DNA of 64,000 bases, taken from positions 640,961 through 704,960 of the forward strand of contig CAVSPA010000004.1 in NCBI GenBank assembly GCA_963729715.1, written 5' to 3'. A program made the translations under genes and the position numbers. Shown one piece after another: positions 13,124 to 51,295 of this stretch. This stretch comes from an uncultured delta proteobacterium. Its GTDB lineage: Bacteria; Desulfobacterota; Syntrophia; Syntrophales; UBA2185. The notes under the pieces are model-generated. The model saw nothing but the letters and a program-made list of their open reading frames with translations. It had not been told where the DNA came from and searched no databases. Each line of letters opens with the position of its first letter. Within the stretch, counting starts at the first letter, position 1.

Positions 13124-15645
<2,522 letters not shown>

Positions 15646-15728
15646 GTATTTATATTATTCTTATTTAACATATGCTATTAAGTTTTTATGCATCTACTAA
15701 ACGATTTTGATTATACAAGGTGGAGACA

Positions 15729-16546
15729 TCATTTGCTTCTTCCTTGTAGTCTATCAACCAGCTCCAATTGAATGAGGATATGCCTTATATCCATGGACAA
15801 ACCTGCGGCCCCTTCCCTGATACCAATGGTATTCTTTGCGAGTCTGATAAGCATCTCCGCATGGCTTTCCCTGAATTTACCCCTGCTCCTCTTCCTTATC
15901 TCTTTGCCAAGCTCTTCCTTTTTTAAACCGCCTATGATTTCAGGTGTGAGATATTTATTGAGTATATAGAGAGCTGTCTTGACCTGTATATCCTTTATCA
16001 CCCTTCTGAATTCGGGAAACAAGAGAAAGACCAGTTGCTGCAACTGATTGAGAAGGGCCGTACGTTCCCCGACATGCCTCTCCCTCGAGTTGTTCAATCT
16101 CTTCAAGTAGGCCGCATCACCTTCCGGGATCACAATGCTCAGTGAGTGCCCCAATAGTATAATATCCGCCAGTACCCGGGGATCCTTGTCATCTGTCTTC
16201 AGCGGAGAGTTGTCGTTTATCTCTTTTACCCTCTTTGTGTGCATGGGATTAACCTGGACTACCGTCACGGGCTTCTTTGACAGGTAATGGCCGATGGGTT
16301 CACCATAGGGACCTGTTGATTCGTATCCTACGATCACCTCATTGCATCTGAACCTGTTCTTATTCACAACAATCATGCTCCAGAGCCTGTCAAGCCCCGC
16401 CCTCGTATTGTCAAATCTGAAAGGCTTTATATCCCTTCCGTCTGTGGTGGTACAGTACCCTCTGTTCATCTCCAAACCGATTCTATTGTCACGATCAGCG
16501 TATCTTCCTTTACCCTTCCTATTTTCCCTGTGCATGCTTTCTTCAT
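15729..16546 (-). pseudogene. IS110 transposase fragment (frameshift near the start, 3' truncated)
   Basis: ESTGPY, VNP and KTDDKD motifs; MKKACTG start at 16546 is out of frame; no C-terminal domain. Confidence 0.85.
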
Positions 16547-19893: not shown

Positions 19894-21396
19894 AATCCAC
19901 ATGCCCGTGAGGGCACCACGAAGGCATGAAAATAAGTTGTTTGAAGCTCTTTGACATTATATCCTTTCTTCAAAAGGAAGCGGGTCGTTTTTTATTTTGG
20001 TGGTAATACCCCGTTTAAAAATCTGACCCGGGCAGATTAAAAGAACCACAAATTGTTACCCCGTCTGGGAGTACGCGTAGTAAATTTTTAATCGATAATC
20101 TGCCCCCTTTTTTAAAGAGAAAGGAGACATGATTATGGAAGCCATTATTGAGAGATGCTGCGGCATCGATGTCCACAAGAAGAACATTGTGGTGTGCCTG
20201 GCGGTAGGCAAACCCAATGAGAAACCGAGGACAACCGTTAAGACATTTTCCACCATGACCCGTGATCTTCTTGCCTGCCGTGACTGGCTGGTATCTGAAG
20301 GCTGCACCCATGCAGTCGTGGAAAGTACCGGGGTTTACTGGAAGCCGGTATTCAACATCCTGGAGGACAGCATGGAGATCATTCTGGCCAATGCCAGAGA
20401 TGTGAAAAACGTTCCCGGACGGAAGACCGACGTGAAAGATTGCGAATGGCTTGCCCAGCTCCTTCGTCACGGCCTGGTCAAGGCGAGCTTCATCCCGCCC
20501 AAGCCGATCCGGGAGTTGAGAGACCTCACTCGCTACCGTGAGAAACTTACGCAGAAGCGCTCTTCGGAGATAAACCGCATTCAGAAGTTTCTGGAGGATG
20601 CCAATATAAAGCTCTCTTCAGTTGCATCTGATATCAACGGGGTATCTGCCCGGAACATGATCCAGCACCTGATCGAGGATGACATGAGCCCGCAGGAAAT
20701 GGCTGATCTCGCCAGAGGGCGTCTCCGGAATAAGATCGAGGAACTGGAAAAATCCCTGGAAGGTTACATTACGGATCATCACCGTCTCATCTTGAGACTG
20801 ACGCTTCAGATGGTTGCCTCGTATGACGAGGCCATCGAGAAGCTGGACACAGAGATAGAGAAGAGGATGGAACCTTTCCAAGAGGAAGCTGAAAGGCTGC
20901 AGACCATTCCAGGTGTAAAAAAAAATTTACTGAACGTATCATCGCCGAGATCGGAGTAGATATGTCGCACTTTCCCTCAGATGCACACATCTCTTCCTGG
21001 GCGGGAGCCAGTCCGGGCAACAATGAAAGTGCGGGAAAACGAAGAAGCGGCAAAGTGACACAGGGGAACAAATGGCTGAAAAGCCTCCTGGTGGAGGCTG
21101 CATGGGCAGCGTCCAAAACAAAAAATACTTACTTGAGCGCCAGGTACCGCCGCCTGGCGGCAAGAAGAGGGAAGAAACGGGCAGCCGTTGCTGTCGGACA
21201 CACCATCTTAATCATGGCTTACCATGTTATCAAAGAGCATCGCACCTACAATAAACTTGGTGCTGATTATTTCGACAAATTAAATGAACAACATCTTGTC
21301 AGACGTTTAACATCAAGGATCAGTGCTTTAGGTTATGAGGTCAAAGTGGAAAAACTACCTGTAGCTGCCTGATATACGGTTTTATTTTCGTAGTAA
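19894..21396 (+). mobile_element. IS110-family element B
   Basis: subterminal IR ATGAAAATAA / TTATTTTCGT; AA(T) at both junctions; guide-like matches in 19980-20085. Confidence 0.75.
20129..21372 (+). pseudogene. IS110 transposase frameshifted at an A9 run near 20917-20925
   Basis: GIDVHK, ESTGVYW and RKTDVKD in ORF 20129..20959; IIAEIG...NNESAGK continues in another frame to 21372. Confidence 0.9.
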
Positions 21397-21732: not shown

Positions 21733-23367
21733 ATGAATTACGAAATAACCGATCATATTCTCTCCCATGTCCATAGAATAAGCACGCTTTTGACTGAACC
21801 ATCTTCAGTCGAAAGGGTACTAAACGTTATCATGGAAACGGTAAAGAAGGACCTTTATTTCAACAGATGCTCCGTCTATCTTATAAACAAGGAGAACAAA
21901 AAACTCGAATGTAAATACATTACAGGATTTTCTCCTGAAAAAGAGAAATTCGTAATGCAAAGACCGTTTGATATGACTAAGCACGACTGCATCGAAACTA
22001 AGGTAATCCTTTGGGGTAAACCCATTCTCGTGAAGAACTTTTACTCCGATCCGGTTGTGACGGAACTGGACAAGAGAGTTACTAACAGAATGGGGCGTGG
22101 CTGCACGCTGTATGTACCATTGAAAATTAAGGGTGATATTATAGGTATTTTGGGTGTGGACAAGAAACGCAATGAACCTGAAATCAACGAAAAGGAACTC
22201 GAATCACTTTCAATTCTCGCCAATTACGCGAGTATCATTATTGAAAATTCGAGACTTGTAGAAGCATTGTTGAATGAGAAAAAATTTTCCGAAAATGTTT
22301 TAAAGAGTTCTGTTGATGGAATCCTGACAGTGGATGTTATCGGCCGGATAACCTCAGTAAATCCGGCAGTAGAAAAAATGTTCGATATAAACAGACCGGA
22401 TGCAATGAATAAATTTATAGGGGATATTTTCGAATCTTCTGAATGGAATGAAAGAATAAGCAAAACCCTCAAACAGCATATAAATATTAAAGGGTGGGAA
22501 TATACCCTTACGAGGAGCAATAATCAGGACATCATACTTAGCACAAGCACCTCCCAAATCATGAATGAGGAAGGTGATCTTGTCGGTTTCATGTTTCTTA
22601 TTCGGGACATAACGAATGAACGCAGAAGGGATGAGTATTTGCAGAGAATGACTCGGTTGATCTCGTTGGGAGAACTTGCGGCCGGTGTGGCACATGAAAT
22701 CAGGAATCCTCTCACCGGAATCGGTGTGGTACTGGACATGCTCCGGAGTAAGAAGCGGCTATCTAAAGTTGACTGCGACTTGATAAATCAGGCCAACGAC
22801 GAAATTGAAAGGCTGGAAAAGTTAATCGCTGATCTCCTCGTCTTTGCAAAGCCTAGGCAACTTAATTATGAGCCCGTCGAGATTAATGATATCTTGAAAA
22901 GTATTTCTTCCCTGATCAGCAAACAGTGCAATAAACAGAATATTGAACTGACCGGCAAATTTTGTGATAAGCTGCCCATCGCTTATGTGGATCGAGAAAG
23001 AATAAGGCAAGGAATTCTAAACGTCGTTATAAACGCAATTCAGGCAATGCCGGAAGGCGGGCGTCTTACTGTTGAAACGAACGTTTATCGTCAGGAGAAT
23101 GCACCTGTCAAAGGTCAATGCATCATGATTACCATCAGCGATACCGGGACTGGTATATACACTGCATATAAAGATCGGATTTTCGACCCATTCTTCACCA
23201 CTCACAGTGATGGAACCGGCCTGGGACTCTCCATTACTCACAGTATCATAAAGGAACATAATGGATTGATACGGGTTGATTCTGAGGAAGGAAAGGGTAC
23301 AAAGTTTACAATCTTGCTGCCACAGGATTGCCGAAAGATCTCTTCTGAGGATTTGTGTATTTTGTAA
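21733..23367 (+). CDS. cytoplasmic GAF-PAS sensor histidine kinase
   Basis: H-box AHEIRNPL; N/D/F/G boxes (NAIQA, DTGTG, FDPFFTT, GTGLGL); no TM. Confidence 0.93.
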   Translation: MNYEITDHILSHVHRISTLLTEPSSVERVLNVIMETVKKDLYFNRCSVYLINKENKKLECKYITGFSPEKEKFVMQRPFDMTKHDCIETKVILWGKPILVKNFYSDPVVTELDKRVTNRMGRGCTLYVPLKIKGDIIGILGVDKKRNEPEINEKELESLSILANYASIIIENSRLVEALLNEKKFSENVLKSSVDGILTVDVIGRITSVNPAVEKMFDINRPDAMNKFIGDIFESSEWNERISKTLKQHINIKGWEYTLTRSNNQDIILSTSTSQIMNEEGDLVGFMFLIRDITNERRRDEYLQRMTRLISLGELAAGVAHEIRNPLTGIGVVLDMLRSKKRLSKVDCDLINQANDEIERLEKLIADLLVFAKPRQLNYEPVEINDILKSISSLISKQCNKQNIELTGKFCDKLPIAYVDRERIRQGILNVVINAIQAMPEGGRLTVETNVYRQENAPVKGQCIMITISDTGTGIYTAYKDRIFDPFFTTHSDGTGLGLSITHSIIKEHNGLIRVDSEEGKGTKFTILLPQDCRKISSEDLCIL

Positions 23368-23376: not shown

Positions 23377-24765
23377 ATGGTTTTGAACAGCGTTCTCATT
23401 GTTGATGACCAGAGCCTCATAAGGAGTTCATTAAGATCAGCACTTAGTAATGAAGGTTACAGAGTTCTTACTGCCGAAACCGGTAAAGAAGGTCTCTCTT
23501 TTTTTGAAAAAGAAAATATCGATCTTGTATTGCTGGATGTCAGACTTCCGGACGCCAATGGCATTGATGTCCTTGAGAAGATGAAAACGGTGAATGATGA
23601 CGTCATCGTCATCATGATGACAGGATACGGTACAATCGAAAATGCTGTCACCGCAATGAAACTTGGTGCCTTTGACTACATCAGCAAGCCCTTCAAAACT
23701 AAACACATCTCAACCATAATAAAACTTGCACTGGAAACCCATAAATTAAAAAGAGAGGTGGAGGATTTTAGGGATAGAACCAGGTCGCTGTATGAGACTG
23801 CTAGAATTATCGGCAAGAGTAAGGCTATTCTGAAGACGCTAGGCATGATCAAGAAAGTTGCCGAGATCGATTCGCCAACCGTACTTATCCAAGGCGAAAG
23901 CGGAACAGGAAAAGAACTGGCTGCAAAGGCTATTCACTATAACAGTTCAAGGTCCGAAGGGCCTTTTGTCGAGATCAATTGCTCATCGATACCTTATACG
24001 CTATTGGAGAGCGAGTTGTTCGGCTATGAGCAGGGAGCATTCACCGATGCGAAAAAAACGAAAAGAGGCCTTATTGAGCAGGCAAACGGCGGTACGTTAT
24101 TTCTCGATGAGATCGGTGACATGGATGTTGCCATGCAGTCGAAGATTTTAAATGTGCTGCAGGAAAGAAAACTGAGAAGGTTAGGCGGGCATCAGACGAT
24201 TCAAGTTAATGCCCGGATTGTCGCCGTAACGAATCACAATCTTCGCGAGGATATTCGTCAAAATAAATTTAGAGAGGATCTTTTTTATAGGTTAAACGTC
24301 ATCAATATTTACCTTCCCCCTCTGCGAGAACGCAGGGAAGACATCAGTCTTCTCGCAAAATATTTTATTGATGAGTTCAATCAAAGCTACAGAAAAATCG
24401 TGAGGGGAATAGACGAAGAGGCTGTTCGCATTATGATGAGTTATTCGTGGCCGGGAAACGTGAGGGAACTGAGAAACACAATCGAGAGAATCATGATTAT
24501 CGATAATCCTGGTTTGATCATGAGCAAGCACCTGCCCCGCGAAGTATTGGAGGAGAGGGGTGTAAACCCGCACTTTACCCCGATTGTGGATATTGAGATC
24601 CCCGAAGACGGGCTGGATATCAATAAATTCACGTTTACAGTCAAAAAGCAACTCGTAAAGAAAACCCTTCTCAAGGCAGGAGGAAACAAATCAAAGGCAG
24701 CAAGGCTCCTGAACCTAGATCGTTTTTCTTTACGGTATTTAATGAAGAAAATGGATCTTTCATAA
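23377..24765 (+). CDS. sigma54-dependent response regulator (NtrC family)
   Basis: receiver domain; GESGTGKE, GAFTDA, LFLDEIG, WPGNVREL; Fis HTH. Confidence 0.95.
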   Translation: MVLNSVLIVDDQSLIRSSLRSALSNEGYRVLTAETGKEGLSFFEKENIDLVLLDVRLPDANGIDVLEKMKTVNDDVIVIMMTGYGTIENAVTAMKLGAFDYISKPFKTKHISTIIKLALETHKLKREVEDFRDRTRSLYETARIIGKSKAILKTLGMIKKVAEIDSPTVLIQGESGTGKELAAKAIHYNSSRSEGPFVEINCSSIPYTLLESELFGYEQGAFTDAKKTKRGLIEQANGGTLFLDEIGDMDVAMQSKILNVLQERKLRRLGGHQTIQVNARIVAVTNHNLREDIRQNKFREDLFYRLNVINIYLPPLRERREDISLLAKYFIDEFNQSYRKIVRGIDEEAVRIMMSYSWPGNVRELRNTIERIMIIDNPGLIMSKHLPREVLEERGVNPHFTPIVDIEIPEDGLDINKFTFTVKKQLVKKTLLKAGGNKSKAARLLNLDRFSLRYLMKKMDLS

Positions 24766-25024: not shown

Positions 25025-25041
25025 TTGGCATTCTCTGTGCA
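25025..25041 (+). promoter_or_regulatory. sigma54 (-24/-12) promoter
   Basis: TTGGCATTCTCTGTGCA with GG (25027-28) and GC (25039-40) spaced by 10 nt. Confidence 0.8.
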
Positions 25042-25086: not shown

Positions 25087-26772
25087 GTGACTACCGCTCT
25101 ATTTAATAACGATGAAGTGGAAAAAATCGGGAAAGCTGGTGCGGCGTGGATTGACGAAGTTTATTCCTGCCATAAGGAGCTCAAGAAGAAATTTGAGACC
25201 TTATCAGGTTTTGAAGTGAAGCCCCTTTATACACCGAAAGATCTGTACAACTTGGATTACATTCGTGATCTCGGTTTTCCGGGAGGGGATCCGTATGTTC
25301 GAGGGGTCCATCCCACAATGTACAGAGGCCGTACTTGGACACACCGGCAATTGGCCGGTTTCGGGCCGCCGGAAGAAACGAATAAACGGTATAAGTTCCT
25401 CCTTCAACAGGGTGCAACAGGGATAAACGGTGTTTTCGATTACCCGACTTTGCGGGGCTACAACAGTGATGACCCCGATGTTTATGCTGATGTAGGGCGT
25501 GGAGGCGTCTCAATCGATTCCATTGAAGATATGCGCATACTTTTCGAGGGCATTCCCATTGATGAAGTCAGCGTTTCTCTCGTAACATGCCAACCCATCT
25601 GCAACATATCAATCCAATCGATGTATTTTGCAAATGCCCAGAACAGAGGGGTGCCACTGAACAAACTGGCGGGAACAAGTCAGAATGATTTTCTGATGGA
25701 AACAGCTATCACCATCGCTCCCGGCGTTACGCCCCCAAAGGTCTCCTTCAGGCTGAGTTGCGACGCCATTGAATTCTGCACGAAATACGTACCGCGATGG
25801 AATCCTATAAGCTTCTCGGGATACAACTACCGCGAGGCAGGATGCACGGCCCCTCAGGAAATCGCCTTTATGATTGCCAATGCCGTTGCTTGCTCGGAGG
25901 AGTTGATTAGACGGGGACACGATATTGACGTATTTGCGCCACGGTTGAGCTTTTTCCTCTCCGCCCACAACGACTTCTTTGAGGAAATCGCTAAGTATCG
26001 TGCTGCACGGCGTATCTACTGCAAAATCATGAAGGAACGTTTCTCTCCGAAAGATCCCCGCTCCCTGATGTTCAGGTTTCACGTCCAAACAGCTGGAGTG
26101 GCGCTGACAGCCCAGCAGCCCTTGAATAACATTGCCCGCGCCTCTTATCATGCCCTTGCGGCGGTTTTGGGCGGAGCACAGTCCGTCCATGTCGACGCCT
26201 ATGATGAAGCACTGTGCGTGCCGACAGAGCTGTCCTCTCTCACGGCTTTGAGGACCCAGCAGATCCTGCAGTCTGAGACCGGTGTGACCAATGTGGTGGA
26301 TCCCTTAGGAGGCTCCTATTTCCTGGAATCTTTGACCCGTCAAATGGAAGAAAGTATAGCCAGCATTCTGGCTGACATTGATTCGATGGGAGGTATTGTC
26401 AAATCCGTAGAGAAAGGGTGGATTCACGATGAAATATCAGCGGCCGCTTTTCAATATCAATCGAAAGTCGAGTCCGGAGAAATGCCCATCGTCGGTGTAA
26501 ATTGTTTTCAGATAGAGAATGAAAAACTTCCGATCAAGCTCTTTCGCTTGCCGAAGACGCTTAAGATACAGGAAGCTAAACTCAAAAGGATCAGAAGAAA
26601 GAGAGATTCCCTGCAGGTGCAGAAGACGTTGGATGCGGTTACCCGCGGATGTGAAGAGGGACTAAACCTTATGGAACTGCTCGTGGAGGGAGTAAAGGTT
26701 TATGTGACAGAGGGAGAAATATCACAAGCCTTGAGAAAAGTCTACGGGGTTTGGAATCCTCCCCTGTTTTAA
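25087..26772 (+). CDS. AdoCbl-dependent acyl-CoA mutase, large (substrate-binding) subunit
   Basis: RGVHPTMY..RTWTHRQLAGFG, GTSQND, FEEIAKYRAAR, RFHVQT and DPLGGSY motifs. Confidence 0.93.
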   Translation: MTTALFNNDEVEKIGKAGAAWIDEVYSCHKELKKKFETLSGFEVKPLYTPKDLYNLDYIRDLGFPGGDPYVRGVHPTMYRGRTWTHRQLAGFGPPEETNKRYKFLLQQGATGINGVFDYPTLRGYNSDDPDVYADVGRGGVSIDSIEDMRILFEGIPIDEVSVSLVTCQPICNISIQSMYFANAQNRGVPLNKLAGTSQNDFLMETAITIAPGVTPPKVSFRLSCDAIEFCTKYVPRWNPISFSGYNYREAGCTAPQEIAFMIANAVACSEELIRRGHDIDVFAPRLSFFLSAHNDFFEEIAKYRAARRIYCKIMKERFSPKDPRSLMFRFHVQTAGVALTAQQPLNNIARASYHALAAVLGGAQSVHVDAYDEALCVPTELSSLTALRTQQILQSETGVTNVVDPLGGSYFLESLTRQMEESIASILADIDSMGGIVKSVEKGWIHDEISAAAFQYQSKVESGEMPIVGVNCFQIENEKLPIKLFRLPKTLKIQEAKLKRIRRKRDSLQVQKTLDAVTRGCEEGLNLMELLVEGVKVYVTEGEISQALRKVYGVWNPPLF

Positions 26773-27030
26773 GGGAACGGCATATTACAAAAATATCTTC
26801 GGTTAATTGAAATGCCGAAAATCTACTAAAACAAACTAAAGGAATGCATTGCATGGCACGGGTTTGGTCTTTGTTTGTTGCCGGTTGGATTGGGATTTCT
26901 TTGGTTGCAGCTATAACCATAAATTCGACTTTCGGCAAACCGATCCGACCGCCAACGAGGCTATTTATATCATAATCAAAATCTAATATCTTTTTTAATT
27001 TCAGAATCAAACTTGAAAGGAGAATAAGAA

Positions 27031-27426
27031 ATGCGAAAATGTCGAATGCTGATGGCGCGTCTGGGGATGGATGCCCACTGGCGGGGAAGCATCGTCGTCG
27101 CACGCGCACTTCGCGATGCAGGAATAGAAGTGATTTATGTCGGTAACCAGATGCCGCCGAACATTGTAAAGACGGCAATACAGGAAGATGTCGATTTCAT
27201 CGGCCTGAGTTCTCTATCTGGAAACCATCTCGAGCTTGCGCCCAAGGTCATCAAACTGCTGCGAGAGGAGAATTGCGGCGACATCAAGGTAGTCTTCGGC
27301 GGGACCGTAGCTCCCGAAGACATTCCAGCGCTGAAGAAGGCAGGCATTGCCGAAGTTTTTGGCCCCGGAACACCCCTGAAGAAGATCGTCGAATACATAT
27401 CCGCTGCAGCGACAGATCTAAGTTAG
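27031..27426 (+). CDS. acyl-CoA mutase small (B12-binding) subunit
   Basis: DxHxxG (DAHWRG), GLSSLSG, VFGG and FGPGT motifs. Confidence 0.93.
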   Translation: MRKCRMLMARLGMDAHWRGSIVVARALRDAGIEVIYVGNQMPPNIVKTAIQEDVDFIGLSSLSGNHLELAPKVIKLLREENCGDIKVVFGGTVAPEDIPALKKAGIAEVFGPGTPLKKIVEYISAAATDLS

Positions 27427-27506
27427 TCCTGAAAGGGACAGGTTTAGAAACTAAGGCCTACATGTTTAAAAAGACTCAGTAAAAATGTCTTAGGAGAAGA
27501 ATAACC

Positions 27507-28562
27507 ATGAACGGACGACATATAAAAGCCAAGAAGGCCGAGATTTTATCATTGGAAGAGGCCGTCAAAAAATACATGCACGATGGTATTATGATGTGTA
27601 CAGGTGGATTCACAGCAATGAACCGGAATCCTGTTGCCTGGGTTTGGGAAACCATAAGACACGGGCTTAAAGATATCCATAATATTGATCCTCATGGTTG
27701 TCTGACATCTTGGATGCTGAATGCAGCCGACGCGATGGCTATTCATGAATCGAGTTGGACCGGCTGGGGCGAGATGGCGGGAAAACTCGACATTCAGTCA
27801 GGCAATCGATATAAGCAAGGGAAGTTGATCCTGGAAGAATACGCGCATGGAGCCATGGCTTTACGATTCCTGGCGGGTGCAGTAGGCAGCCCCTTCATGC
27901 CATATTTTGCACCCCCCGGGTCCGACCTCTACAACCCTGATTATGATGCCCTCGGAAAGGCTGGTCTTCGTAATGGTAAAAACCCGAGGATAGCTGATAA
28001 AAAGTTCGTCCCCATCGAGGACCCATTTTTCAAAGAAGGCACCGTCTATCTTCTGCCGGCCATCAGACCGGAGCTTGCCGTCATTCATGTGTCCCAAGCC
28101 GGTGAAAAAGGGACAGCAAGATGGAGAGGCATCAGTACGCTGGACAAAGAGATGGCCTTTGCAAGTGACAAAGTGGTTCTCACTTGTGAGGAAATCATTT
28201 CAGAGGCTGAGCTGCGGCGCCTGCCGGAATCCAATCAGATCCCCTATTTTGTCGTAGATTGTATTGTACAGATTCCTTACGGGGCCTACCCGAGTGGTAC
28301 GCCTTATTTTTATGACTACGACGCACAGTTCATTCGGGCCATGGATCAGGCCTCTCGAAACTCGCAGGATCTAAAACAATGGTTAAATGAATGGGTATTT
28401 GAACCGGCGTCCTGGGATGCTTTTTTAGACAAGGTGGGCACGAAAAGATTACTCGATCTTAAAGCGGACAGTGTGCTGGGTTATAGCCAAAAGCTGGTAA
28501 GGGGCAAGAAACCTTCACCGATGATGAGAATGCCCTTATCCGTGATGAAAAGTGGTTTTTAA
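27507..28562 (+). CDS. family I CoA-transferase subunit A (GctA-like)
   Basis: GGF, RFLAGA.G.PF, ..P.LA.IH and CEEI motifs. Confidence 0.85.
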   Translation: MNGRHIKAKKAEILSLEEAVKKYMHDGIMMCTGGFTAMNRNPVAWVWETIRHGLKDIHNIDPHGCLTSWMLNAADAMAIHESSWTGWGEMAGKLDIQSGNRYKQGKLILEEYAHGAMALRFLAGAVGSPFMPYFAPPGSDLYNPDYDALGKAGLRNGKNPRIADKKFVPIEDPFFKEGTVYLLPAIRPELAVIHVSQAGEKGTARWRGISTLDKEMAFASDKVVLTCEEIISEAELRRLPESNQIPYFVVDCIVQIPYGAYPSGTPYFYDYDAQFIRAMDQASRNSQDLKQWLNEWVFEPASWDAFLDKVGTKRLLDLKADSVLGYSQKLVRGKKPSPMMRMPLSVMKSGF

Positions 28563-28579
28563 CTTTTTAAGGGGGAAAA

Positions 28580-29479
28580 ATGTCAAGTAAATCTATTGAA
28601 GAACTAGTCGCCATATTGGAAATAATTCCGGATGAACCAGCAAAGATCGGCGAATTCGCTTTGCCCGAGTTAATGGCCATTGCATGCTCACATGAGGTCA
28701 AGGACAGCGATATCGTTTTTGCCGGCACGGGTCTCCCTATGGTCGGCATCATGACAGCAAACCTGCTTCATGCCCCCCATGCGGCTCTGATTTATGAAGC
28801 TGGGATATGTGACGGAAAGACCATGCATACCCCTATGAGTGTTTGCGATGGCAGAGCGAGTTATATGGCATCCACCCTGGGAGGATTAGTAGATACTTTC
28901 GCTTATTATCTTCAGCGGGGTTACGTATCGCTTGGGTTCCTCGGAGGAGCAGCCATCGATCAATTCGGGGGGGTCAACGTCACCTGTATTGGTGATAATT
29001 ATTTCAAACCAGATAATCGCCTAACGGGGAGCGGCGGCAACTCAGACATTGGGACCATGGCAAAAAGGACCGTCTTCATTATGCTTCAGGAAAAGAGAAG
29101 ATTCGTCGAAAGAAATGAATACACAACTACGCCGGGCTGGTGGTGCTGGGATTGGAAAAAAAGAGAATGGAAGCCCAAGAGAGAAGCTTTAAAAAATAGC
29201 CCCTTTGCAGATTGTGGACCTGAGGCCGTTGTTACGAACATGGGCATATTCAGGTTTGATGAAAAGGGCATTATGTACTTGGAGTCCTATCATCCCGGTG
29301 TGACTGTTGAAAAAATTGCAAATAATTGTAATTTCGGTCTCAACATTTCCAGGGTGAAAGGAGAAACGCGTTATCCGACTTACAGAGAATTATTTGTACT
29401 CAGGGAATTTGTTGATCCTGAATTAATCTTTATGTCTGAGAGGCCGGAATACCCCGAAGACATAAGAAACTTGCTCTAA
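28580..29479 (+). CDS. family I CoA-transferase subunit B (GctB-like)
   Basis: FAGTGLP, IYEAG (catalytic Glu position), GFLGGAAIDQFG.VN, RLTGSGG and HPGV motifs. Confidence 0.88.
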   Translation: MSSKSIEELVAILEIIPDEPAKIGEFALPELMAIACSHEVKDSDIVFAGTGLPMVGIMTANLLHAPHAALIYEAGICDGKTMHTPMSVCDGRASYMASTLGGLVDTFAYYLQRGYVSLGFLGGAAIDQFGGVNVTCIGDNYFKPDNRLTGSGGNSDIGTMAKRTVFIMLQEKRRFVERNEYTTTPGWWCWDWKKREWKPKREALKNSPFADCGPEAVVTNMGIFRFDEKGIMYLESYHPGVTVEKIANNCNFGLNISRVKGETRYPTYRELFVLREFVDPELIFMSERPEYPEDIRNLL

Positions 29480-30751: not shown

Positions 30752-31198
30752 TTAAATGGAAGCAGCAAAAGCACAAGCTTTGTAAAATCTCTTGTGCCTA
30801 ATATTCAGCAGTGTACCGTCCTCCATGTTTTTCAGGAGAGCGTATTTTTCAACTAGTGGTTTGAATTTCTCCCGGCCATAAATGCTGAGACAATTATAGA
30901 AAAGTAAGTTGAGTTCACTACTGGATAATTGGGCTCTAACCAGATTAGTATAAAATTTTTTATCAGGGATTTCGCTGGTTTCTATGAATTTAACGATGTT
31001 GTATAAATTACGAAAATAATGCCCGAGGTACGACTGATAATATCTGTAAAGCTTATTATACTCTTCATCTATAATTTGAATTTCCTCCTCATCGTCTCTT
31101 TTATGTAATGGGTCCGATCTCCAAAAATTGGAAAAAAATTTATAAAGCCAGATAAAAGCGGTTCTCGCCTCATAGCGCACGGCGTCATCTCTAATCAC
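30752..31198 (-). pseudogene. putative phage abortive-infection protein, C-terminal part
   Basis: GHYFRNLYNI.KFI...Y...RAQLS..EL.LLFYN...FK.LVEKY.LL pattern; the usual N-terminal TM region is missing. Confidence 0.7.
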
Positions 31199-32832: not shown

Positions 32833-33291
32833 ATGATCCCTATTGAAGACAAAGCACGAGATTTTTTAATGGTTCTTGCGGCGTTGCTCTGGGCCTTTAT
32901 CATTTATGCGAGCTGGCAAGGCGCCCTGAGCAAGAGTAATCAGCTCATCTACTGCGGTCTTCTGGCCTGTGCCGTCCTGGTCGTCGTTTACTTTGTGATG
33001 GGTGCAGTGGTGAATCAGAAGATCAGCACGGCAGTCCTCATCTGGCCGGTACTGCTGAATGGGGTTACACAGGCTATTGCCTTTACAATAGTCTACATGA
33101 CAAAAGGAGAGAAGTTGGATTTCATCCTGGGAATGCACCCCGGTTTTTTCGGAGCCATAGTATTTTTCTGGCTGGGTAACTTCCTGACCTCAACCCTCTC
33201 TTACTGGGTCCTCTTCAAGAAGAGCGCTGTTCCCGACGAAGAATGGAGCGCGTTCATGAAAGAGGTCGCCGCTCAAGAGAAACTTCACTAA
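32833..33291 (+). CDS. 4-TM membrane protein, probable symporter partner
   Basis: strong RBS; 12 bp upstream of the SSS gene. Confidence 0.75.
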   Translation: MIPIEDKARDFLMVLAALLWAFIIYASWQGALSKSNQLIYCGLLACAVLVVVYFVMGAVVNQKISTAVLIWPVLLNGVTQAIAFTIVYMTKGEKLDFILGMHPGFFGAIVFFWLGNFLTSTLSYWVLFKKSAVPDEEWSAFMKEVAAQEKLH

Positions 33292-33303
33292 GGAGGTGAG
33301 ATA

Positions 33304-34788
33304 ATGGATGAGCAATTTATTCAACCATCCCCGTTTATTATTGGTTATGTTATAGTTTTTCTTATCATCTCGATAGGAATCGGCTGGTATGCGAACAGGT
33401 ATGCCAAGACGGCAGAAGGGTTCTTCGGCGGCACCAAGATGTTCAGTGGGCTTGTCATCGGGTTAGCCTCCATGGCGGCCGTCATGAGCGCCTTCGGCTT
33501 TATCGGAGGTCCCGGTCTGGTCTATAAGTTCGGCTTCACCTCCATCTGGATGACCATCGCCTGCGGTCCCGGTTTTGCCTACGGTTACTGGGTCATCGGC
33601 AAGCGCATGCGCGCCATGGCGGAAGTAACGGACGTGGCAACGCTTCCTGATATCGCCCGGGTCCGCTTCCAGAGCCAGGCGGTACGTGGCATCCTCGCTA
33701 TCGGTTTGTTTCTGGCGGCCACTGCCTACCTTTCTTCGCAGGTCAAGGGCGGCGCCAAGCTCATGAACCAGATGCTCGGAGTATCCGAGGAATGGGGGGT
33801 TATCATAATGTTCGGTACGACGCTCGCCTACATGCTGTTTTCCGGCATGTCCGGCAGTATCCTGACCGATGCCTTCCAGGGGCTGGTCATGCTTATCGGT
33901 GTTGCGGGTGTCGTCTTCGCCTTTTTTGCCATGACTGGCGGTGATTTCAGCGCCATTATGAACGCGCCTCACTTCGGTCCGAGTTTCGTCGACGGGGCCG
34001 GGAGCCTGCCCTTCCAACTGGTGATTACCTGGGCCGTAGTCTTCTTCATCGGCGTCATGTTGCAGCCCCAACTGCTCACCAAGATGTATGCCGTGAAGAA
34101 CCCCAAGGACCTTAAGCTCGCGGGGATTCTCGGCGGGACGACCTACGGACTCACGTCTCTGGTCTGGATCCTCGTTGGCTATGGTGCTGTATATCTGGTC
34201 GCAACCGGCGCCGCGCCACCCCTCAAGGACCTGGACAAGGCAGCATTCCTCTTTGTGAGTAAGACAGGTGGGGTCATGCAGGCGCTCATCATGGCGGCGC
34301 TGCTCGCTGCAATCGTGTCCACGGCGAGCTTTTTCATCTCGCTTGCCTCGGGTGCGATCACCCGTGACCTCGCAGGCGCCATGGGACACGAGATAGCCCA
34401 CGATAGACAGATCGTAGTCGGCCGCTACCTGCAAGTCGTCGTGATAATTCTTTGTATAGGCTTTGGCTACTGGGGAGGCCGGGCGGTAGCTATTTTGGGA
34501 ACCCTTGGATGGGGCTTCTTCGCATCTGTAACGCTTCCCACCTTCTTGATGGGCCTTCTCTGGAAGCGGTGCTCCCGTGAAGGTGTGCTGACCGGACTTA
34601 GCTTTGCAGTTGTTGCAAATATTGCCCTTCCATTGCTTGAGAACTTCAAGATTTACAAACTGCCTTACCCTTATTATCTCTTTGCCATCGCAGGAACCGT
34701 AATTTTGACAACCGTGGTTTCCCTGTTCACGACAGGAGCTGCGGGTAAGAACCTCCCCAAGCAGATGGAACCGGTCTTCAAACTATAA
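33304..34788 (+). CDS. sodium:solute symporter (SSS family)
   Basis: MSAFGFIGGPG, TDAFQG and LAAIVST motifs; about 13 TM. Confidence 0.92.
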   Translation: MDEQFIQPSPFIIGYVIVFLIISIGIGWYANRYAKTAEGFFGGTKMFSGLVIGLASMAAVMSAFGFIGGPGLVYKFGFTSIWMTIACGPGFAYGYWVIGKRMRAMAEVTDVATLPDIARVRFQSQAVRGILAIGLFLAATAYLSSQVKGGAKLMNQMLGVSEEWGVIIMFGTTLAYMLFSGMSGSILTDAFQGLVMLIGVAGVVFAFFAMTGGDFSAIMNAPHFGPSFVDGAGSLPFQLVITWAVVFFIGVMLQPQLLTKMYAVKNPKDLKLAGILGGTTYGLTSLVWILVGYGAVYLVATGAAPPLKDLDKAAFLFVSKTGGVMQALIMAALLAAIVSTASFFISLASGAITRDLAGAMGHEIAHDRQIVVGRYLQVVVIILCIGFGYWGGRAVAILGTLGWGFFASVTLPTFLMGLLWKRCSREGVLTGLSFAVVANIALPLLENFKIYKLPYPYYLFAIAGTVILTTVVSLFTTGAAGKNLPKQMEPVFKL

Positions 34789-36395: not shown

Positions 36396-37139
36396 CTAAG
36401 TCAAGCCTGAATGTATTTTTCTCATTGAACCTCCTGTTAATGTAAATATAATTTTATGCGCATTATGGACAACGCGATCACATATGGCATCTGCAAGAGT
36501 CGGGTCTCCTATGATATCGTGCCATGTATCGACAGGGAACTGACTGGCAATGATAGTGGACCGTACGTTATGTCTGTCTTCCATGATTTCGAGTAAGTCC
36601 CTTCTTTCTTCATCGGTAAAAGGATTTATCCCCCAGTCATCGATGACGAGGAGCTTTATTCTCTGGAGGCGCTGAAGAAGTTTCACATAGCTCCCGTCTG
36701 CTTTTGCTATTTTCAGTTCACGGCCCAACCGTGGCAGCCTCGTATACAAGGTACTTATTCCCTGCCGTATAGCGCTGTTCCCCAGGGCACATGCAAGGTA
36801 CGTTTTCCCTGCACCGGTGGGACCGACTATGATGATGTTCTGGTTATTCCGTATCCACTCATTCTGAGAAAGTCTCAGTATTGCGTCTTTCGTTATGCCC
36901 CGCCTGGTCCTGAAGTCGATATTCTCAGGACAGGCTGTGGGGTGCCGGAGATGTGCATGGGAGAGGAGGAGCTTTATACGCCGGTTCTCCCTGTGAAGTT
37001 TTTCCTTGTCGACAAGAAGGCCGAATCTTTCCTCAAAACCGAGATCACGATATTCAGCGCTGTTCATCTGTTCCCTCAAGCCCTCTGACATCCCATGGAG
37101 CTTCATGGCAATAAGCTTTTCAATAGTCGCCTCAATCAT
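36396..37139 (-). CDS. istB: IS21 helper ATPase
   Basis: GPTGAGKT, IDDWG and ADAICDR motifs. Confidence 0.95.
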   Translation of the reverse strand: MIEATIEKLIAMKLHGMSEGLREQMNSAEYRDLGFEERFGLLVDKEKLHRENRRIKLLLSHAHLRHPTACPENIDFRTRRGITKDAILRLSQNEWIRNNQNIIIVGPTGAGKTYLACALGNSAIRQGISTLYTRLPRLGRELKIAKADGSYVKLLQRLQRIKLLVIDDWGINPFTDEERRDLLEIMEDRHNVRSTIIASQFPVDTWHDIIGDPTLADAICDRVVHNAHKIIFTLTGGSMRKIHSGLT

Positions 37140-38688
37140 GGGATGCCTCATGGTAATAGTTGTTTCCTCTTATATTGGGATGTAAGGGGAAGATCTTTTT
37201 TATCTCACTCCCCTCAGGGCCCGCCTCCTCCAGTCCCATCTTCAGGATGGACTTTACGCTCCGGTAATTGTATGCCCCTATGTCCAATGCTCTTTTACAT
37301 GCTTTCTCTACCCGTGGAGAAGAGTATGTCCTGGAGAGCCTTATTATGCCGAGGCAACTCCGGAACCCATGTTCCGGGTGGGCACGGTTCTCCATTAACT
37401 TTTCCATAAAGTCCCTGGTGTAAGGCCCTACCTTCTCTCCCCATGACTTTATCCGTGCCGGTGTCCATTCGAGGTACTGCCGGTGCTCATGCGGCATGTG
37501 GAGGTCTTGCGTGACAAAAACACCGGGCTTATCTACCTGCATATGAGAGGCCACCCGTTTGCTCTTGTGATATATTTCGACAACAGTGCCGGTATACCTG
37601 ATATCCACGTATTCCCCGATCAGGGTATAGGGAACACTATAGTATGTCTTTGTCACCTCGATGTGGTAATCGATGTGCACCTTTGCTTTCTTCCAGGCGG
37701 CAATGACAAACCTCTCCGCAGGGAGGGGTTTCAGTAAGGGTTTCTCAATTTCGAGAAAGAGGTCAAGGCGGGATTTATTTATCCCCGTCATGGGTCTGGC
37801 ATTCAGATTCTTCACTTCTTCCATTACCGCCTCGTTGAGTTCCGTAATGTTAAAGAACAACCGGTTCCGCAATGCGGCGACAATCCTTCGCTGGGCTTGA
37901 AGGACTGCATTTTCCACTTTCGCCTTGTCCCTGGGTTTTGCCACTCTTGTGGGAATGACGGCAATGCGGTAATGCTCTGCCATTGCTGCAAAGGTCTTAT
38001 TGATTTCCGGATCATAGTAACAGGCATGTGTAACTCCGGCTTTCAAATTGTCGATAATAATACTCTCGGGACATCCTCCGTAGAATTCAAAGGCTTTGAT
38101 GTTGCATTTCACAAAGCTTTTCCCCGTCTGATCAGGCGCCGCACAGGAAAAAATGTATGAGCTCGCACCTAATACCGAAACGAAAAGTTCAACATCAACC
38201 CGCTCTCCTGTTGCCGGATCCTGATAGTGGGGACTGTCTCCGGAAAAGTCGACAAACATCTTCTCTCCCGCCTTGTGGGTAAACCTCATCACCGGGTCCG
38301 CCTTCCCGGCCCATTCGCCGTAAAGGTGATAAAACTGGCTCCTCTCGTATCCTCCGGGATTGTCTCTTTTGTACTCTTCATATAGAAGTTGAAGCGTTAC
38401 TCCTTTCTTTTTCATCTCCCCTGTCAGGTAGACAAAGTCAGGCAATGGCCTTGACGCCGGCTGCTCTCCCTTGGGAAACAGAAGATCGGAAAGCGAGTCA
38501 TCATCCATCTCCATAATTTCTCCATAACCGGCACCGAGCTCCCTGAGTTTCTCCATATACGTATGGGCTGTAGATGGCGAAATGTCACACGCCCTGGCAA
38601 TCGGGCGCACACCCAGCTTCAGTTCTAAAAACAGCCGCGCTATTTCTCTGAGTTTCCTCATGGGTAACTTCCTCCCTTTCTTCTTCAT
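37132..38688 (-). CDS. istA: IS21 transposase
   Basis: VDFSG, IDNLKAGV and PRDKAKVE motifs. Confidence 0.95.
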   Translation of the reverse strand: MKKKGRKLPMRKLREIARLFLELKLGVRPIARACDISPSTAHTYMEKLRELGAGYGEIMEMDDDSLSDLLFPKGEQPASRPLPDFVYLTGEMKKKGVTLQLLYEEYKRDNPGGYERSQFYHLYGEWAGKADPVMRFTHKAGEKMFVDFSGDSPHYQDPATGERVDVELFVSVLGASSYIFSCAAPDQTGKSFVKCNIKAFEFYGGCPESIIIDNLKAGVTHACYYDPEINKTFAAMAEHYRIAVIPTRVAKPRDKAKVENAVLQAQRRIVAALRNRLFFNITELNEAVMEEVKNLNARPMTGINKSRLDLFLEIEKPLLKPLPAERFVIAAWKKAKVHIDYHIEVTKTYYSVPYTLIGEYVDIRYTGTVVEIYHKSKRVASHMQVDKPGVFVTQDLHMPHEHRQYLEWTPARIKSWGEKVGPYTRDFMEKLMENRAHPEHGFRSCLGIIRLSRTYSSPRVEKACKRALDIGAYNYRSVKSILKMGLEEAGPEGSEIKKIFPLHPNIRGNNYYHEASHD

Positions 38689-43305: not shown

Positions 43306-44874
43306 ATGGCACAGGTAAGGATCAGTATGAGAAAGATAAAAGAAGTCTTAAGATTACATTTTGAAGCCGGGATATCCCAAGCCAAGATATCAGATATTGC
43401 CAATATCAGCAGATTTACAGTTCAGCAATATATAATGAGGTTTACCGCTGCCGGGCTGAGCTGGCCATTGGACATGAGTGATGATGAACTGGAACGGAGA
43501 TTGTTTCCCAGGAACAAGGGGAAAAATAACCGAGAGGAACCAGATTACCGCTGGTTGCTGCAGGAGATCCGCAGGCCAAACGCAACACTGTCTGTCTTAT
43601 GGGAAGAATACAAGCAACAGCACCCGGCTGGTTATCAATACAGCTATTTTTGTGATTTGTTCAATGCTTACCGGGAAAAGCTGAACTTAAGCATGCGCCA
43701 GGTTCACAAAGCCGGCGAGAAAACATTTATTGATTTCAGCGACAGTCCGATAAAGATTATCACTCGGGCAACCGGGACAGAGACCGATACAAAAATCTTC
43801 GTTTCTGTCTGGGGCGCATCAAGCTACATGTTTGCCAAGAGTTGCCTGGATGAGAAGTTGCCAACCTGGATAAGATTAAATGTCAACGCGCTGGAGTATT
43901 TTGGGTGTTGCCCAAGGGCGATGGTACCGGATAATCTCAGATCGGCGGTAAGCAGGGCATCCAGATATGAGCCTGATATAAATCCCACCTATGCGGAGTT
44001 TGCAAGACATTACGGGACAGTGATTTTTCCGGCAAGACCTTATCGGCCAAAAGACAAATCCAAAGCTGAGAATGGCATAAAGCTGGCGAAGCGGTGGATA
44101 TTGTTCCGGCTGCGCAATGAGCGCTTCTATTCGCTGAGCGAACTGAATGATGCGATCGGTGTATTGCTCAAAGAGTTTAACAAAAGAAAAATGAAAAAGT
44201 TTCAAAAAAGCCGGCAGGAGCTTTTTGAACTTTTAGACAAACCACATGCGCTTAAACTTCCGGATGCACATTACGAATTTGCTGAATGGAAAAAAGCCAA
44301 GGTACAGTTTAATTATCACGTCAGCTATGAGGGGCATGATTATTCGGTACCTTATACGCTCATTCATAAAGAGGTGGATATTAAAGCCACGCCTGTCCTG
44401 ATAGAGGTTTATTACAATGGCAAAAGAATCTGCAGTCATGCAAAAAGCAGCAAGCCTTACGGTTATACAACCGTCCCAGAGCATATGCCCCGGAATCATC
44501 AAAAATATCTGGAATGGACCCCGGACAGGATTCTGCATTATGCGGCGAAGTACGGGCAATCGGTTAAGGCGCTTGTTCAAAGGGTCATGGACTCCAGAAA
44601 GTTTCCTGAGCAGGCATATAAGTCATGCCTGGGCATCATCAGGCTTGAGAACAAATATACGGCGGCCCGCTTGGATCTTGCCTGCAATAGAGCGCTTCTA
44701 TACAGGGCTTATTCCTATAACAGCGTAGCTGCCATTCTCGAGAAAGGGCTGGATAAACAAACTCCTTTGTCACAGATAAACAACGCCGTCATTAATCACG
44801 AAAACATCAGAGGTTCGAATTATTATCTGGAAGGAGGAAACAGTGTACGCGCAGACAATAAGCAAAATGAATGA
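43306..44874 (+). CDS. istA: IS21 transposase
   Basis: IDFS, VPDNLRSAV and PKDKSKAE motifs. Confidence 0.95.
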   Translation: MAQVRISMRKIKEVLRLHFEAGISQAKISDIANISRFTVQQYIMRFTAAGLSWPLDMSDDELERRLFPRNKGKNNREEPDYRWLLQEIRRPNATLSVLWEEYKQQHPAGYQYSYFCDLFNAYREKLNLSMRQVHKAGEKTFIDFSDSPIKIITRATGTETDTKIFVSVWGASSYMFAKSCLDEKLPTWIRLNVNALEYFGCCPRAMVPDNLRSAVSRASRYEPDINPTYAEFARHYGTVIFPARPYRPKDKSKAENGIKLAKRWILFRLRNERFYSLSELNDAIGVLLKEFNKRKMKKFQKSRQELFELLDKPHALKLPDAHYEFAEWKKAKVQFNYHVSYEGHDYSVPYTLIHKEVDIKATPVLIEVYYNGKRICSHAKSSKPYGYTTVPEHMPRNHQKYLEWTPDRILHYAAKYGQSVKALVQRVMDSRKFPEQAYKSCLGIIRLENKYTAARLDLACNRALLYRAYSYNSVAAILEKGLDKQTPLSQINNAVINHENIRGSNYYLEGGNSVRADNKQNE

Positions 44875-45580
44875 AATGAAATTGCACGGTATGGCCAGAT
44901 CTTTTCAAGAACGGCGGACAAAACCGGACCATCAGGATTTAAGCCATGACGAGTTTACCGCCTTGCTGATTGATGACGAATATATACAAAGGCAGAACAA
45001 TCGTCAGCGCCGTTTGATGCAGAGGGCAAAGCTGAAGTTTCCCTCTGCTGCTCTGGAAAACATTGACTATCTCAAGAATAGAAACATTGCCAAAACGAAG
45101 ATTACTTCTTTACAGAATAACCAATGGTTGGAAAAACATCAGAACATTTTAATCTCAGGGCCAACCGGTGTTGGCAAGAGTTACCTGACATGTGCTTTCG
45201 GCCAGTGGGCCTGCCGGAATGGATTCTCTGTTTATTACAGCCGCTGGCCGAGAATGCTTGGCGATATCCTGGCTGCAAGAGGCGAAGGCAATTATCTAAA
45301 ATATCTGCAGAAGCTGACTAAAGTCGGACTGCTGATCATTGACGATTTCGGCTTAAACTCACTATCTGATGCCGATAAGAAAGATCTGATGGAGATTGTC
45401 GAGGATCGCTATATGACCGGTTCAACAATTATCGCAAGTCAGTTGCCGATCAAAGACTGGCATGCTTTTATCGGTGATCCCACAATCGCCGATGCTGTTT
45501 GTGACAGATTATTCCATGTCGCTCATAAATTTGAATTGAAAGGAGACACAATGCGAAAAAAAATAGAATCTATTGATTGA
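44843..45580 (+). CDS. istB: IS21 helper ATPase
   Basis: GPTGVGKS, IDDFG and ADAVCDRL motifs. Confidence 0.95.
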   Translation: MYAQTISKMNEMKLHGMARSFQERRTKPDHQDLSHDEFTALLIDDEYIQRQNNRQRRLMQRAKLKFPSAALENIDYLKNRNIAKTKITSLQNNQWLEKHQNILISGPTGVGKSYLTCAFGQWACRNGFSVYYSRWPRMLGDILAARGEGNYLKYLQKLTKVGLLIIDDFGLNSLSDADKKDLMEIVEDRYMTGSTIIASQLPIKDWHAFIGDPTIADAVCDRLFHVAHKFELKGDTMRKKIESID

Positions 45581-50775: not shown

Positions 50776-50799
50776 AAACTTGCCCCCTGATTGGTTTTT

Positions 50800-50975
50800 G
50801 GGGCATGCCCCGGCCCGAGTCGGTAAAAAACGGTTAATCTCCTGAACGGGATCTGACATGCCGAAAAGACATGATTTGTCACCAATGTAATAACCAAAGA
50901 AAACTCGGTACCATGCTTCTAGACGGGTATGAAAACACCAGTGAGGAGTCGATATTGACTGCCGGGGCGCACCCG
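50800..50975 (-). ncRNA. bridge-RNA-like region of IS110 element C
   Basis: TGCTTCTAGA and TCTCCTGA are identical to the element junctions; RNA ends approximate. Confidence 0.7.
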
Positions 50976-51285: not shown

Positions 51286-51295
51286 CTTTTTTGTT

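Follow-up and report, generated by a model that had tools for sequence, protein, structure and literature searches.

What substrate is rearranged by an adenosylcobalamin (AdoCbl)-dependent acyl-coenzyme A (acyl-CoA) mutase whose carboxylate-binding residues have been replaced? We address this question for positions 25087-29479 of a 64,000-nucleotide stretch of contig CAVSPA010000004.1 from an uncultured delta proteobacterium of the Syntrophales (the whole stretch is called the window here). Judged by homology, this segment encodes an AdoCbl acyl-CoA mutase split into a large (L) and a small (S) subunit, followed by CoA-transferase genes. L belongs to a tightly conserved clade of its own, which we call type C, and we consider it very probable that the enzyme is an AdoCbl-dependent mutase of an uncharged short acyl-CoA and not of methylmalonyl-CoA. 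The operon and the regulatory genes upstream of it are laid out as follows:

21733-23367, + strand: soluble sensor histidine kinase with GAF, PAS, HisKA and HATPase domains (Pfam)

23377-24765, + strand: sigma-54-dependent response regulator with receiver (Response_reg, 109 bits), sigma-54 AAA+ (Sigma54_activat, 230 bits) and Fis-type helix-turn-helix (HTH_8) domains, followed by a 321-nt spacer up to the L gene

25026-25041, + strand: sigma-54 -24/-12 promoter element TGGCAT-N5-GTGCA, 46 nt before the GTG start of L

25087-26772, + strand: acyl-CoA mutase large (substrate-binding) subunit L, type C, 561 aa, with a GTG start behind AGGAGG

26773-27030: 258-nt spacer between L and S, containing a transporter gene remnant

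26823-26975, + strand: what is left (the last ~43-50 codons) of a carboxylate transporter gene of the AceTr (GPR1/FUN34/YaaH) family

27031-27426, + strand: mutase small subunit S, B12-binding (PF02310), 131 aa, with the base-off/His-on motif DxHxxG

27507-28562, + strand: family I CoA-transferase subunit A, GctA-like, 351 aa (PF01144)

28580-29479, + strand: family I CoA-transferase subunit B, GctB-like, 299 aa (PF01144)

L matches PF01642 over positions 2-512 of the 512-position profile (607.5 bits) and scores 614 bits against the superfamily model TIGR00641 (acid_CoA_mut_N, cut-off 304), while S reaches 75.8 bits with PF02310 and 134.6 bits with TIGR00640 (acid_CoA_mut_C, cut-off 57). The B12 motifs of S are complete in translation, with D14, H16 and G19 forming DxHxxG, SxL present as SSL, and GG present as FGG. 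A preliminary description of this locus had split large and small subunits preceding GctA/B-like genes; the gene order stands, but L and S are not adjacent, being separated by the 258-nt spacer with its transporter remnant.

Residues of the substrate pocket

In methylmalonyl-CoA mutase (MCM), Tyr89 and Arg207 bind the substrate carboxylate, as seen in the P. shermanii structures. We fixed the residue register of L by phmmer alignment to PDB chains of MCM (1req, 5req, 2xij) and of 2-hydroxyisobutyryl-CoA mutase (HCM; 4r3u). The segment RQLAGF (residues 87-92, nt 25345-25362) aligns without gaps on RQYAGF of MCM (1req, 2xij) and RQIAGF of HCM (4r3u), which puts Leu89 (nt 25351-25353) at the Tyr89 position. 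Likewise, QNDFLMETAIT (residues 199-209, nt 25681-25713) aligns on QNDILKEFMVR of MCM, with Thr209 (nt 25711-25713) at the Arg207 position. L has one additional residue ahead of a conserved PP, and the HCM alignment shifts the gap so that Ile210 stands opposite the HCM Gln; the Arg207 position is non-basic under both alignments. Both motif strings of the preliminary description are present where it placed them, and its reading of Tyr89 as Leu and Arg207 as Thr agrees with the alignment to MCM and HCM, with Ile210 as an equally non-basic alternative to Thr. On two further replacements it was silent: SGYH(M/I) of MCM and HCM has become SGYNY, with Asn247 (nt 25825-25827) at the His244 position, and the Asp117 position of HCM (GISTDFD) is occupied by Val116 (GINGVFD). 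The CoA-binding stretch of L, TMYRGRTWTHRQ, was aligned to MCM and HCM in the same way.

These residues recur across the family. Among the 120 best database matches, RQLAGF is present in 118 (the other two fail the regular expression) and GINGVFDYPT in 111. L89, V116, F202, T206 and N247 are kept in 16 of 16 sequences of our family alignment, which reaches down to 72% identity and has a mean column identity of 82%, and the type C copies of the gene loci described below carry the same motifs. On this comparison, the replacements are family traits and not the product of chance or sequencing error, and the type C signature reads Leu89, Val116, Phe202, Met204, Thr206, Thr209 and Asn247.

Because the carboxylate-binding pair of MCM is replaced, the substrate of type C would be an uncharged short acyl-CoA, neither methylmalonyl- nor ethylmalonyl-CoA. 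The uncharged polar residues Asn114, Thr206, Thr209 and Asn247 of the predicted pocket could bind a hydroxyl group. We find no basis for the earlier suggestion that the substrate is bulky; several of the pocket substitutions (Ala to Val116, Ile to Phe202) enlarge the side chains.

A clade apart from the characterised mutases

We searched 1.84 billion representative sequences and, of the 150 matches listed, aligned the 135 with 480 aa or more. To these we added 16 members of the family and, from plasmid records, three references: two for HCM (Xaut_5021 and the Methylibium enzyme) plus Xaut_5043. The resulting FastTree topology has 154 leaves, is rooted at midpoint and carries local supports. 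The 16 type C members are monophyletic with a support of 1.0, their nearest neighbours being P0124 (51% identity, identical motifs) and P0151. Type C lies outside all clades with the Tyr/Arg/His triad of MCM-type enzymes. The clade of Xaut_5043 comprises four leaves (support 1.0) and excludes type C; the common ancestor of the two spans 67 of the 154 leaves, and type C joins the two HCM references only at the root of the tree. The phylogeny, which had been suggested as a check on the preliminary description, thus gives type C its own clade, apart from MCM, isobutyryl-CoA mutase (ICM), HCM and Xaut_5043.

L of the window is 44-45% identical to HCM (P0122, P0123), 41% to an MCM-type representative, 40% to a representative of the Phe/Gln (F/Q) type and 38% to Xaut_5043. 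Its top solved relative is the HCM chain 4r3u_A (E = 1.8e-141, 476 bits, vs 407 bits for human MCM). It stays below the equivalog cut-offs for MCM (NF006944, 535 bits vs 876) and for IcmF (248 bits vs 1500). A search of the ESM Atlas with type C returned generic 'methylmalonyl-CoA mutase' clusters and nothing more specific. Within the 135 nearest representatives, the Tyr/Arg/His triad is found in just 50, Phe/Gln in seven, Leu at position 89 in 18 and Asn at the His244 position in 16. By its sequence, type C belongs with none of MCM, ICM, HCM and Xaut_5043 but forms a clade of its own, and it would be a specificity variant inside a known kind of enzyme, working like the known split acyl-CoA mutases. 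Set against three characterised systems, it shows the following likenesses and differences:

(i) HcmAB (Aquincola/Methylibium/Xanthobacter; 4r3u) shares with type C the split subunits of the same lengths, and it is the closest solved relative, with an uncharged substrate and an inducible catabolic operon. Its signature, which we take to be Ile90 and Asp117 (both visible in 4r3u, P0122 and P0123), is Leu and Val in type C, its Gln208 position is Thr or Ile, and its His is Asn. Type C also falls outside the HCM clade, and its operon would rely on a CoA-transferase for activation, whereas HCM has the HCL ligase; the window has no MeaB gene.

(ii) ICM (IcmAB/IcmF; 4xc6) belongs to the same superfamily and acts on an uncharged short-chain substrate, and the enzymes needed for isomerisation of isobutyrate and butyrate, a mutase and a CoA-transferase, are those that this operon encodes. 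The presumed ICM signature, in which Phe and Gln stand in for Tyr89 and Arg207, is absent from type C, which has Leu and Thr/Ile at these positions, and type C has no fused G-protein.

(iii) MCM (1req, 2xij) has the fold, the CoA-binding stretch and the B12-binding motifs in common with type C, at about 41% identity, yet Tyr89, Arg207 and His244 are all replaced in type C, which scores under the equivalog cut-off.

Regulation and gene neighbourhoods

The operon is preceded by the parts of a sigma-54 two-component regulon: an activator with receiver, AAA+ and helix-turn-helix domains, and a -24/-12 promoter before the first gene. The pattern TGGCAY-N5-KTGCA has a single match in the 64-kb window (25026-25041), where shuffled sequences lead one to expect 0.12. 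Scans of the window for sigma-70 promoters (18 vs 15.0 expected) and terminators (12 vs 8.2 expected) remained at chance. The sigma-54 element is present in nine of the 11 upstream spacers examined from related loci, with varying bases in the N5 spacer; the two without it are L006, which has no upstream kinase or regulator, and L010, where the kinase is divergent. The sensor region of the kinase (its first 300 aa) is 64-99% identical in L001, L002, L003, L005, L011, L013, L015 and L016 (68% in L011, which is of the GctAB type, and 65% in L015) and 39% identical in L010. Among NCBIfam models the regulator scores highest with AtoC, yet its 470 bits fall short of the cut-off of 714, and it is no AtoC equivalog. 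The preliminary description had called the route inducible; the conserved promoter, with a kinase and a sigma-54 activator directly upstream, makes it plausible that the type C operon is inducible.

The putative CoA-transferase has its top solved relatives in GctAB of Acidaminococcus fermentans (1poi_A, 1.8e-49, for the GctA-like and 1poi_B, 4.7e-40, for the GctB-like protein), which likewise consists of two family I subunits, although those of the window are longer (351 + 299 vs 317 + 260 aa). As expected of family I, Glu73 of the GctB-like protein aligns on the Glu in the IVESG segment of 1poi_B, which we take to be the catalytic Glu54. GctA homologues bear the source annotation glutaconate CoA-transferase subunit A, and for neither protein was an NCBIfam model reached at its equivalog cut-off. 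The more distant PDB relatives 5mzw and 6co6 are annotated merely as CoA-transferase-family proteins; the former is presumably the decarboxylase AibAB and the latter the ring hydrolase IpdAB. Taken together, the pair likely acts as a CoA-transferase.

To see which partners type C keeps, we fetched 80 loci, called open reading frames (ORFs), clustered them by BLASTP, scanned the representatives with Pfam and NCBIfam, and counted as a partner any gene within five genes of type C. A type C ORF was called in 67 loci; the 13 others likely reflect contig ends or a longer antisense ORF that won the overlap filter. The small subunit is the only constant partner (55 of 67 loci). After it come an M24 metallohydrolase (15), another, different mutase (11), MeaB (8), a kinase and regulator (7), GctA and GctB (6: L001, L002, L003, L005, L006, L011), TetR (5) and a homologue of AbfD (3: L009, L015, L038). 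Since just six of 67 loci carry GctAB, the coupling to a CoA-transferase claimed in the preliminary description would be a trait of the window's sub-lineage; there and in the window it stands, but for the family as a whole it does not.

One orthologous operon departs from the window in an informative way. At positions 6756-13594 of L015, orthologues of the kinase, regulator, promoter, L and S are followed, 36 nt on and in place of the CoA-transferase, by a homologue of AbfD (4-hydroxybutyryl-CoA dehydratase/vinylacetyl-CoA isomerase; 283 bits to 1u8v). In this homologue Cys103 and Cys299 are kept, another Cys lies one residue ahead of the Cys99 position, and the His has shifted by two residues. 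L009 and L038 likewise have an AbfD homologue beside type C, and L038 has TetR and a short-chain acyl-CoA dehydrogenase in addition. In L068, an HIBADH-family gene begins 2 nt after S, and in L004 a transferase of the butyryl-CoA:acetate/AbfT family, a crotonase and an M24 gene lie directly upstream. L026 contains an adenosyltransferase and, downstream, thiolase, 3-hydroxybutyryl-CoA dehydrogenase and crotonase genes as well as a biotin carboxylase, a biotin carrier and a carboxyltransferase. Upstream in L010 are a MaoC dehydratase, a carboxyltransferase, a crotonase and a gene resembling 3-hydroxy-3-methylglutaryl-CoA (HMG-CoA) lyase (142 bits, cut-off 246), and divergent from them two phosphotransacylases and a butyrate-kinase-like gene. 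In L065, L and S are surrounded by TetR, an acyl-CoA synthetase, a Liv-type ABC transporter and a thioesterase.

The M24 proteins (Creatinase_N + Peptidase_M24, e.g. L026:5649-6839) keep all five metal ligands and occur in three orders, at L004, L006, L019, L020, L026, L028, L037, L043, L045, L049, L065, L071, L072, L073 and L078. Clusters of the Desulfobacterales type have three different non-canonical mutase pairs in tandem, with type C third, behind TetR and together with MeaB and M24. They are complete in L025, L028 (3623-13520), L037, L043 and L054 and partial in L026, L031, L039, L045, L061 and L078. The two companions carry the motifs REVVGI / QNDPIHFRYCGF / NMYDLREQG (type A) and RQLGSL / KEYQAQK / SGYHLASAG (type B), and none of types A, B and C fits a characterised signature.

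The spacer between L and S preserves a trace of what the operon once encoded. L003 still has the whole AceTr gene between L and S (L003:11780-12379), and the remnant in the window is 64% identical to it over aa 157-199 (tblastn). In the window and in L002, about 480 bp of the gene have been deleted, as the junction in blastn shows, leaving the last ~43-50 codons; an intact AceTr gene (~190-200 aa) is not found in the window. In L001, the gene is interrupted by an unrelated 429-aa ORF without a Pfam match, and in L011, AceTr-homologous sequence lies downstream of GctB in two pieces (a tblastn match with no ORF called). Because AceTr genes or their remnants sit in type C operons, they favour the view that the operon acts on a small monocarboxylate. 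At 32833-34788, 3.3 kb downstream of the operon, a gene of the sodium:solute symporter family follows a 152-aa membrane protein without a family match; this symporter could replace the lost AceTr transporter.

All source names among the matches, and all 80 locus titles, are those of metagenome-assembled genomes (MAGs). The carriers belong to Syntrophales/Syntrophaceae, Desulfobacterales/Desulfobacteraceae, Syntrophobacteraceae, Desulfobaccales and unclassified Deltaproteobacteria, and several MAGs have two type C copies (e.g. L001 with L017, and L003 with L004). A homologue of the GctA-like protein, at 68% identity, occurs in the isolate Desulforhabdus amnigena (P0281), which reportedly isomerises butyrate and isobutyrate.

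The region around the mutase operon is dense in mobile elements: three IS21 pairs (istA/istB), several IS110 elements, one Mutator-family transposase, a phage-type integrase and a group II intron reverse transcriptase, in stretches at 6518-8816, 13541-16535, 36396-38688, 43306-45580, 49375-52585, 57910-58749 and 63334-63999. At 20129-21372, an IS110-family transposase is broken into ORFs of 276 and 136 aa that lie in different frames. Upstream of 20960 the conserved reading (...IAEIGVDMSHF...) runs on in the second frame, and this would be either a frameshifted copy or a sequencing error. An AbiC-like gene is located at 30752-31198, and 52913-57610 holds three caspase-like (Peptidase_C14) genes in a row, two with ankyrin repeats, plus a DUF4384 protein.

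Candidate substrates and pathways

The enzymatic activity of type C, the order of steps and the substrate are what we infer from the genes and residues described above. We propose that a small organic acid would be taken up, the operon's own AceTr transporter having decayed here, and that it would gain CoA from an acyl-CoA donor (a downstream acyl-CoA) via the GctAB-type transferase. By a 1,2-shift the mutase would then transfer the thioester carbon to the adjacent carbon, giving a linear product that would proceed to crotonyl-CoA and to β-oxidation enzymes encoded elsewhere.

As substrate we tentatively favour, at somewhat less than an even chance, a 2-methyl-branched C4 acyl-CoA that would be made linear, either 3-hydroxyisobutyryl-CoA to 4-hydroxybutyryl-CoA or isobutyryl-CoA to butyryl-CoA. 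The former is suggested because an AbfD partner takes the place of the transferase in the orthologous operon of L015, the sole non-generic clue to the substrate. The reaction would be the exact analogue of that of MCM, with CH2OH replacing the carboxylate and Leu89 and Thr209 replacing the residues that clamp it, and a pocket with Thr and Asn where MCM has Arg, Tyr and His would suit it. By itself, the proposal that type C is a natural 3-hydroxyisobutyryl-CoA/4-hydroxybutyryl-CoA mutase feeding 4-hydroxybutyryl-CoA dehydratase is a doubtful one, to which we give about one chance in five. Isobutyryl-CoA to butyryl-CoA would be the ecologically most ordinary candidate and fits the C4 β-oxidation neighbours. 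For isomerisation from acid to acid, a mutase and a CoA-transferase would suffice, and Matthies and Schink reportedly described in 1992 the isomerisation of butyrate and isobutyrate in strain WoG13 by a mutase plus a CoA-transferase. As another partner for AbfD, the formation of vinylacetyl-CoA from methacrylyl-CoA was considered and rejected on chemical grounds, the product radical being expected to be vinylic.

Several observations weigh against the C4 proposal. The link to AbfD is found in three of 67 loci and that to HIBADH in one; the neighbours are mostly generic ones such as crotonase, thiolase and acyl-CoA dehydrogenase, and the commonest non-mutase neighbour, M24 (15 of 67 loci), has no role in the scheme. 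The acyl-CoA carboxylase parts in L010 and L026 and the HMG-CoA-lyase-like gene in L010 would fit C5 chemistry (isovaleryl) better. Isobutyryl-CoA appears already to have a dedicated enzyme type, the canonical F/Q group (seven of 135 representatives), whose Phe and Gln are absent here. No characterised mutase known to us has Asn at the His244 position, and this replacement could mean different chemistry. There is no MeaB gene in the window, and no isolate among the named rows of the 240 matches, most rows being nameless. Because no 4-hydroxybutyryl- or 3-hydroxyisobutyryl-CoA mutase is described in the literature searched, the prior for such an enzyme is low. A related reaction, that of a lactyl-CoA mutase, is called new-to-nature in a 2024 paper (PMC11599936). 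The literature on syntrophic isobutyrate degradation yielded nothing on the type C family among the matches listed, and PMC2847961 and PMC7176365 contain no data on specificity residues.

Among the alternatives, a substrate beyond those usually considered survives best, and we give it roughly one chance in four. It might be a hydroxylated or 2-methyl-branched C5 acyl-CoA (3-hydroxy-2-methylbutyryl- to 4-hydroxyvaleryl-CoA, or 2-methylbutyryl- to valeryl-CoA), an amino-acyl-CoA, or lactoyl-/3-hydroxypropionyl-CoA, and the acid may be freed from an amide or a zwitterionic precursor by the M24 hydrolase. The ligand-complete M24 proteins near type C in 15 of 67 loci, in three orders, are consistent with it. 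The Desulfobacterales tandem with two other non-canonical mutases and MeaB suggests a family of related substrates, and with the canonical triad in just 50 of 135 representatives, much of the family's chemistry would be unexplored. Nevertheless, nothing specific favours any single compound of this group, and the window is without an M24 gene.

A pivalyl-CoA/isovaleryl-CoA mutase, to which the preliminary description inclined, we hold to be improbable. Here, a pivalate-like quaternary-carbon acid would be CoA-activated and rearranged to isovaleryl-CoA, which would continue along the leucine route via 3-methylcrotonyl-CoA carboxylase, a hydratase and HMG-CoA lyase. The reference for such an enzyme is Xaut_5043/5044 of Xanthobacter autotrophicus Py2, which we take to be the pivalyl-CoA mutase (PCM) that Kitanishi, Cracan and Banerjee reportedly identified in 2015; the literature searched did not confirm this assignment. 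Type C and Xaut_5043 share Leu at position 89 (RQLIGL in Xaut_5043), split subunits and the lack of a basic residue at the Arg207 position, so the preliminary remark that Leu89 is as in PCM is right about the residue, but its bearing on pivalate depends on whether Xaut_5043 is indeed the PCM. The gene content of some loci would suit the leucine route as well: in L010, a carboxyltransferase, a crotonase-family hydratase and the HMG-CoA-lyase-like gene lie directly upstream of L and S, in L026 the biotin carboxylase, biotin carrier and carboxyltransferase lie downstream, and L065 resembles Xaut_5039-5045 in layout. On the other side, the identity of 38% to Xaut_5043 is below that to HCM (44-45%) and to MCM-type enzymes (41%), and the clades are separate. 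The pocket motifs differ at the 116, 202-209 and 245-247 positions (QSDYISHFIANH vs QNDFLMETAITI in type C, VGQHMQQAG vs SGYNYREAG, and AISLLPC vs GINGVFD), and Xaut_5043 keeps the His244 that type C has lost, in a cluster with ligases, MeaB and an ABC transporter. L010, with its kinase sensor region at 39% identity, is not of the same regulon, carboxylase genes occur in two loci, and pivalate is a rare natural compound. An identity with PCM is thus not borne out, and the pivalate lead fares no better by context, where the AbfD homologue, the small-carboxylate transporter and the C4 β-oxidation genes point at least equally to C4.

Still more improbable is a 2-hydroxyisobutyryl-/3-hydroxybutyryl-CoA mutase with a different pocket solution, similar to HCM/RCM or to the acetone-pathway mutase of Desulfococcus/Desulfosarcina. 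HCM is the top solved relative (476 bits vs 407 for human MCM), L026 has 3-hydroxybutyryl-CoA dehydrogenase and thiolase genes, and PMC7888143 describes such a mutase in use among sulfate reducers of this phylum. However, the HCM markers Ile90 and Asp117 are replaced in type C, and in the triple clusters it is the type B paralogue (...KEYQAQK..., His kept) that looks more like HCM. No gene for a thiamine-dependent lyase/formylase or for a 2-hydroxyisobutyrate (2-HIBA)-CoA ligase was seen beside type C, and an AbfD partner would be needless for such a route.

We regard a catalytically impaired or non-enzymatic paralogue as very unlikely, even though His244, now Asn, is kept in all alignable characterised mutases (MCM, HCM, IcmF-type and Xaut_5043): the family is under very strong purifying conservation (82% mean column identity, with members down to 72%), its B12-binding motifs are intact, MeaB and adenosyltransferase are co-located in some loci, and the recurrence of Asn at this position in 16 of 135 representative clusters suggests a working alternative. 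That L is an ordinary MCM binding the carboxylate by other residues, as the source annotations of type C and the shared fold family would have it, can be set aside almost entirely, as the preliminary description already held, with Tyr89, Arg207 and His244 all replaced, a score of 535 against the 876 of NF006944, a position outside the Y/R/H clades, and a window that offers neither an epimerase nor a propionyl-CoA carboxylase as context.

The characterised kinds of acyl-CoA mutase are few (MCM, ethylmalonyl-CoA mutase (ECM), ICM/IcmF, HCM/RCM and PCM), and each specificity added so far has opened a pathway or a biotechnological route. Because just 50 of the 135 nearest representatives have the canonical triad, unstudied pocket variants are common in the superfamily and the surprise of finding another is limited. 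Type C is nonetheless a large, tightly conserved clade whose pocket is unlike that of any characterised member and has lost the His244 position, and its named carriers are uncultured syntrophs and sulfate reducers only. If the 4-hydroxybutyryl-CoA reading is true, type C would be an enzyme sought for C4 and methacrylate chemistry; if 3-hydroxyisobutyryl-CoA is its substrate, branched C4 acids derived from valine would have a new anaerobic path to crotonyl-CoA. Once known, the substrate of type C would fill a step in the anaerobic breakdown of branched short-chain acids.

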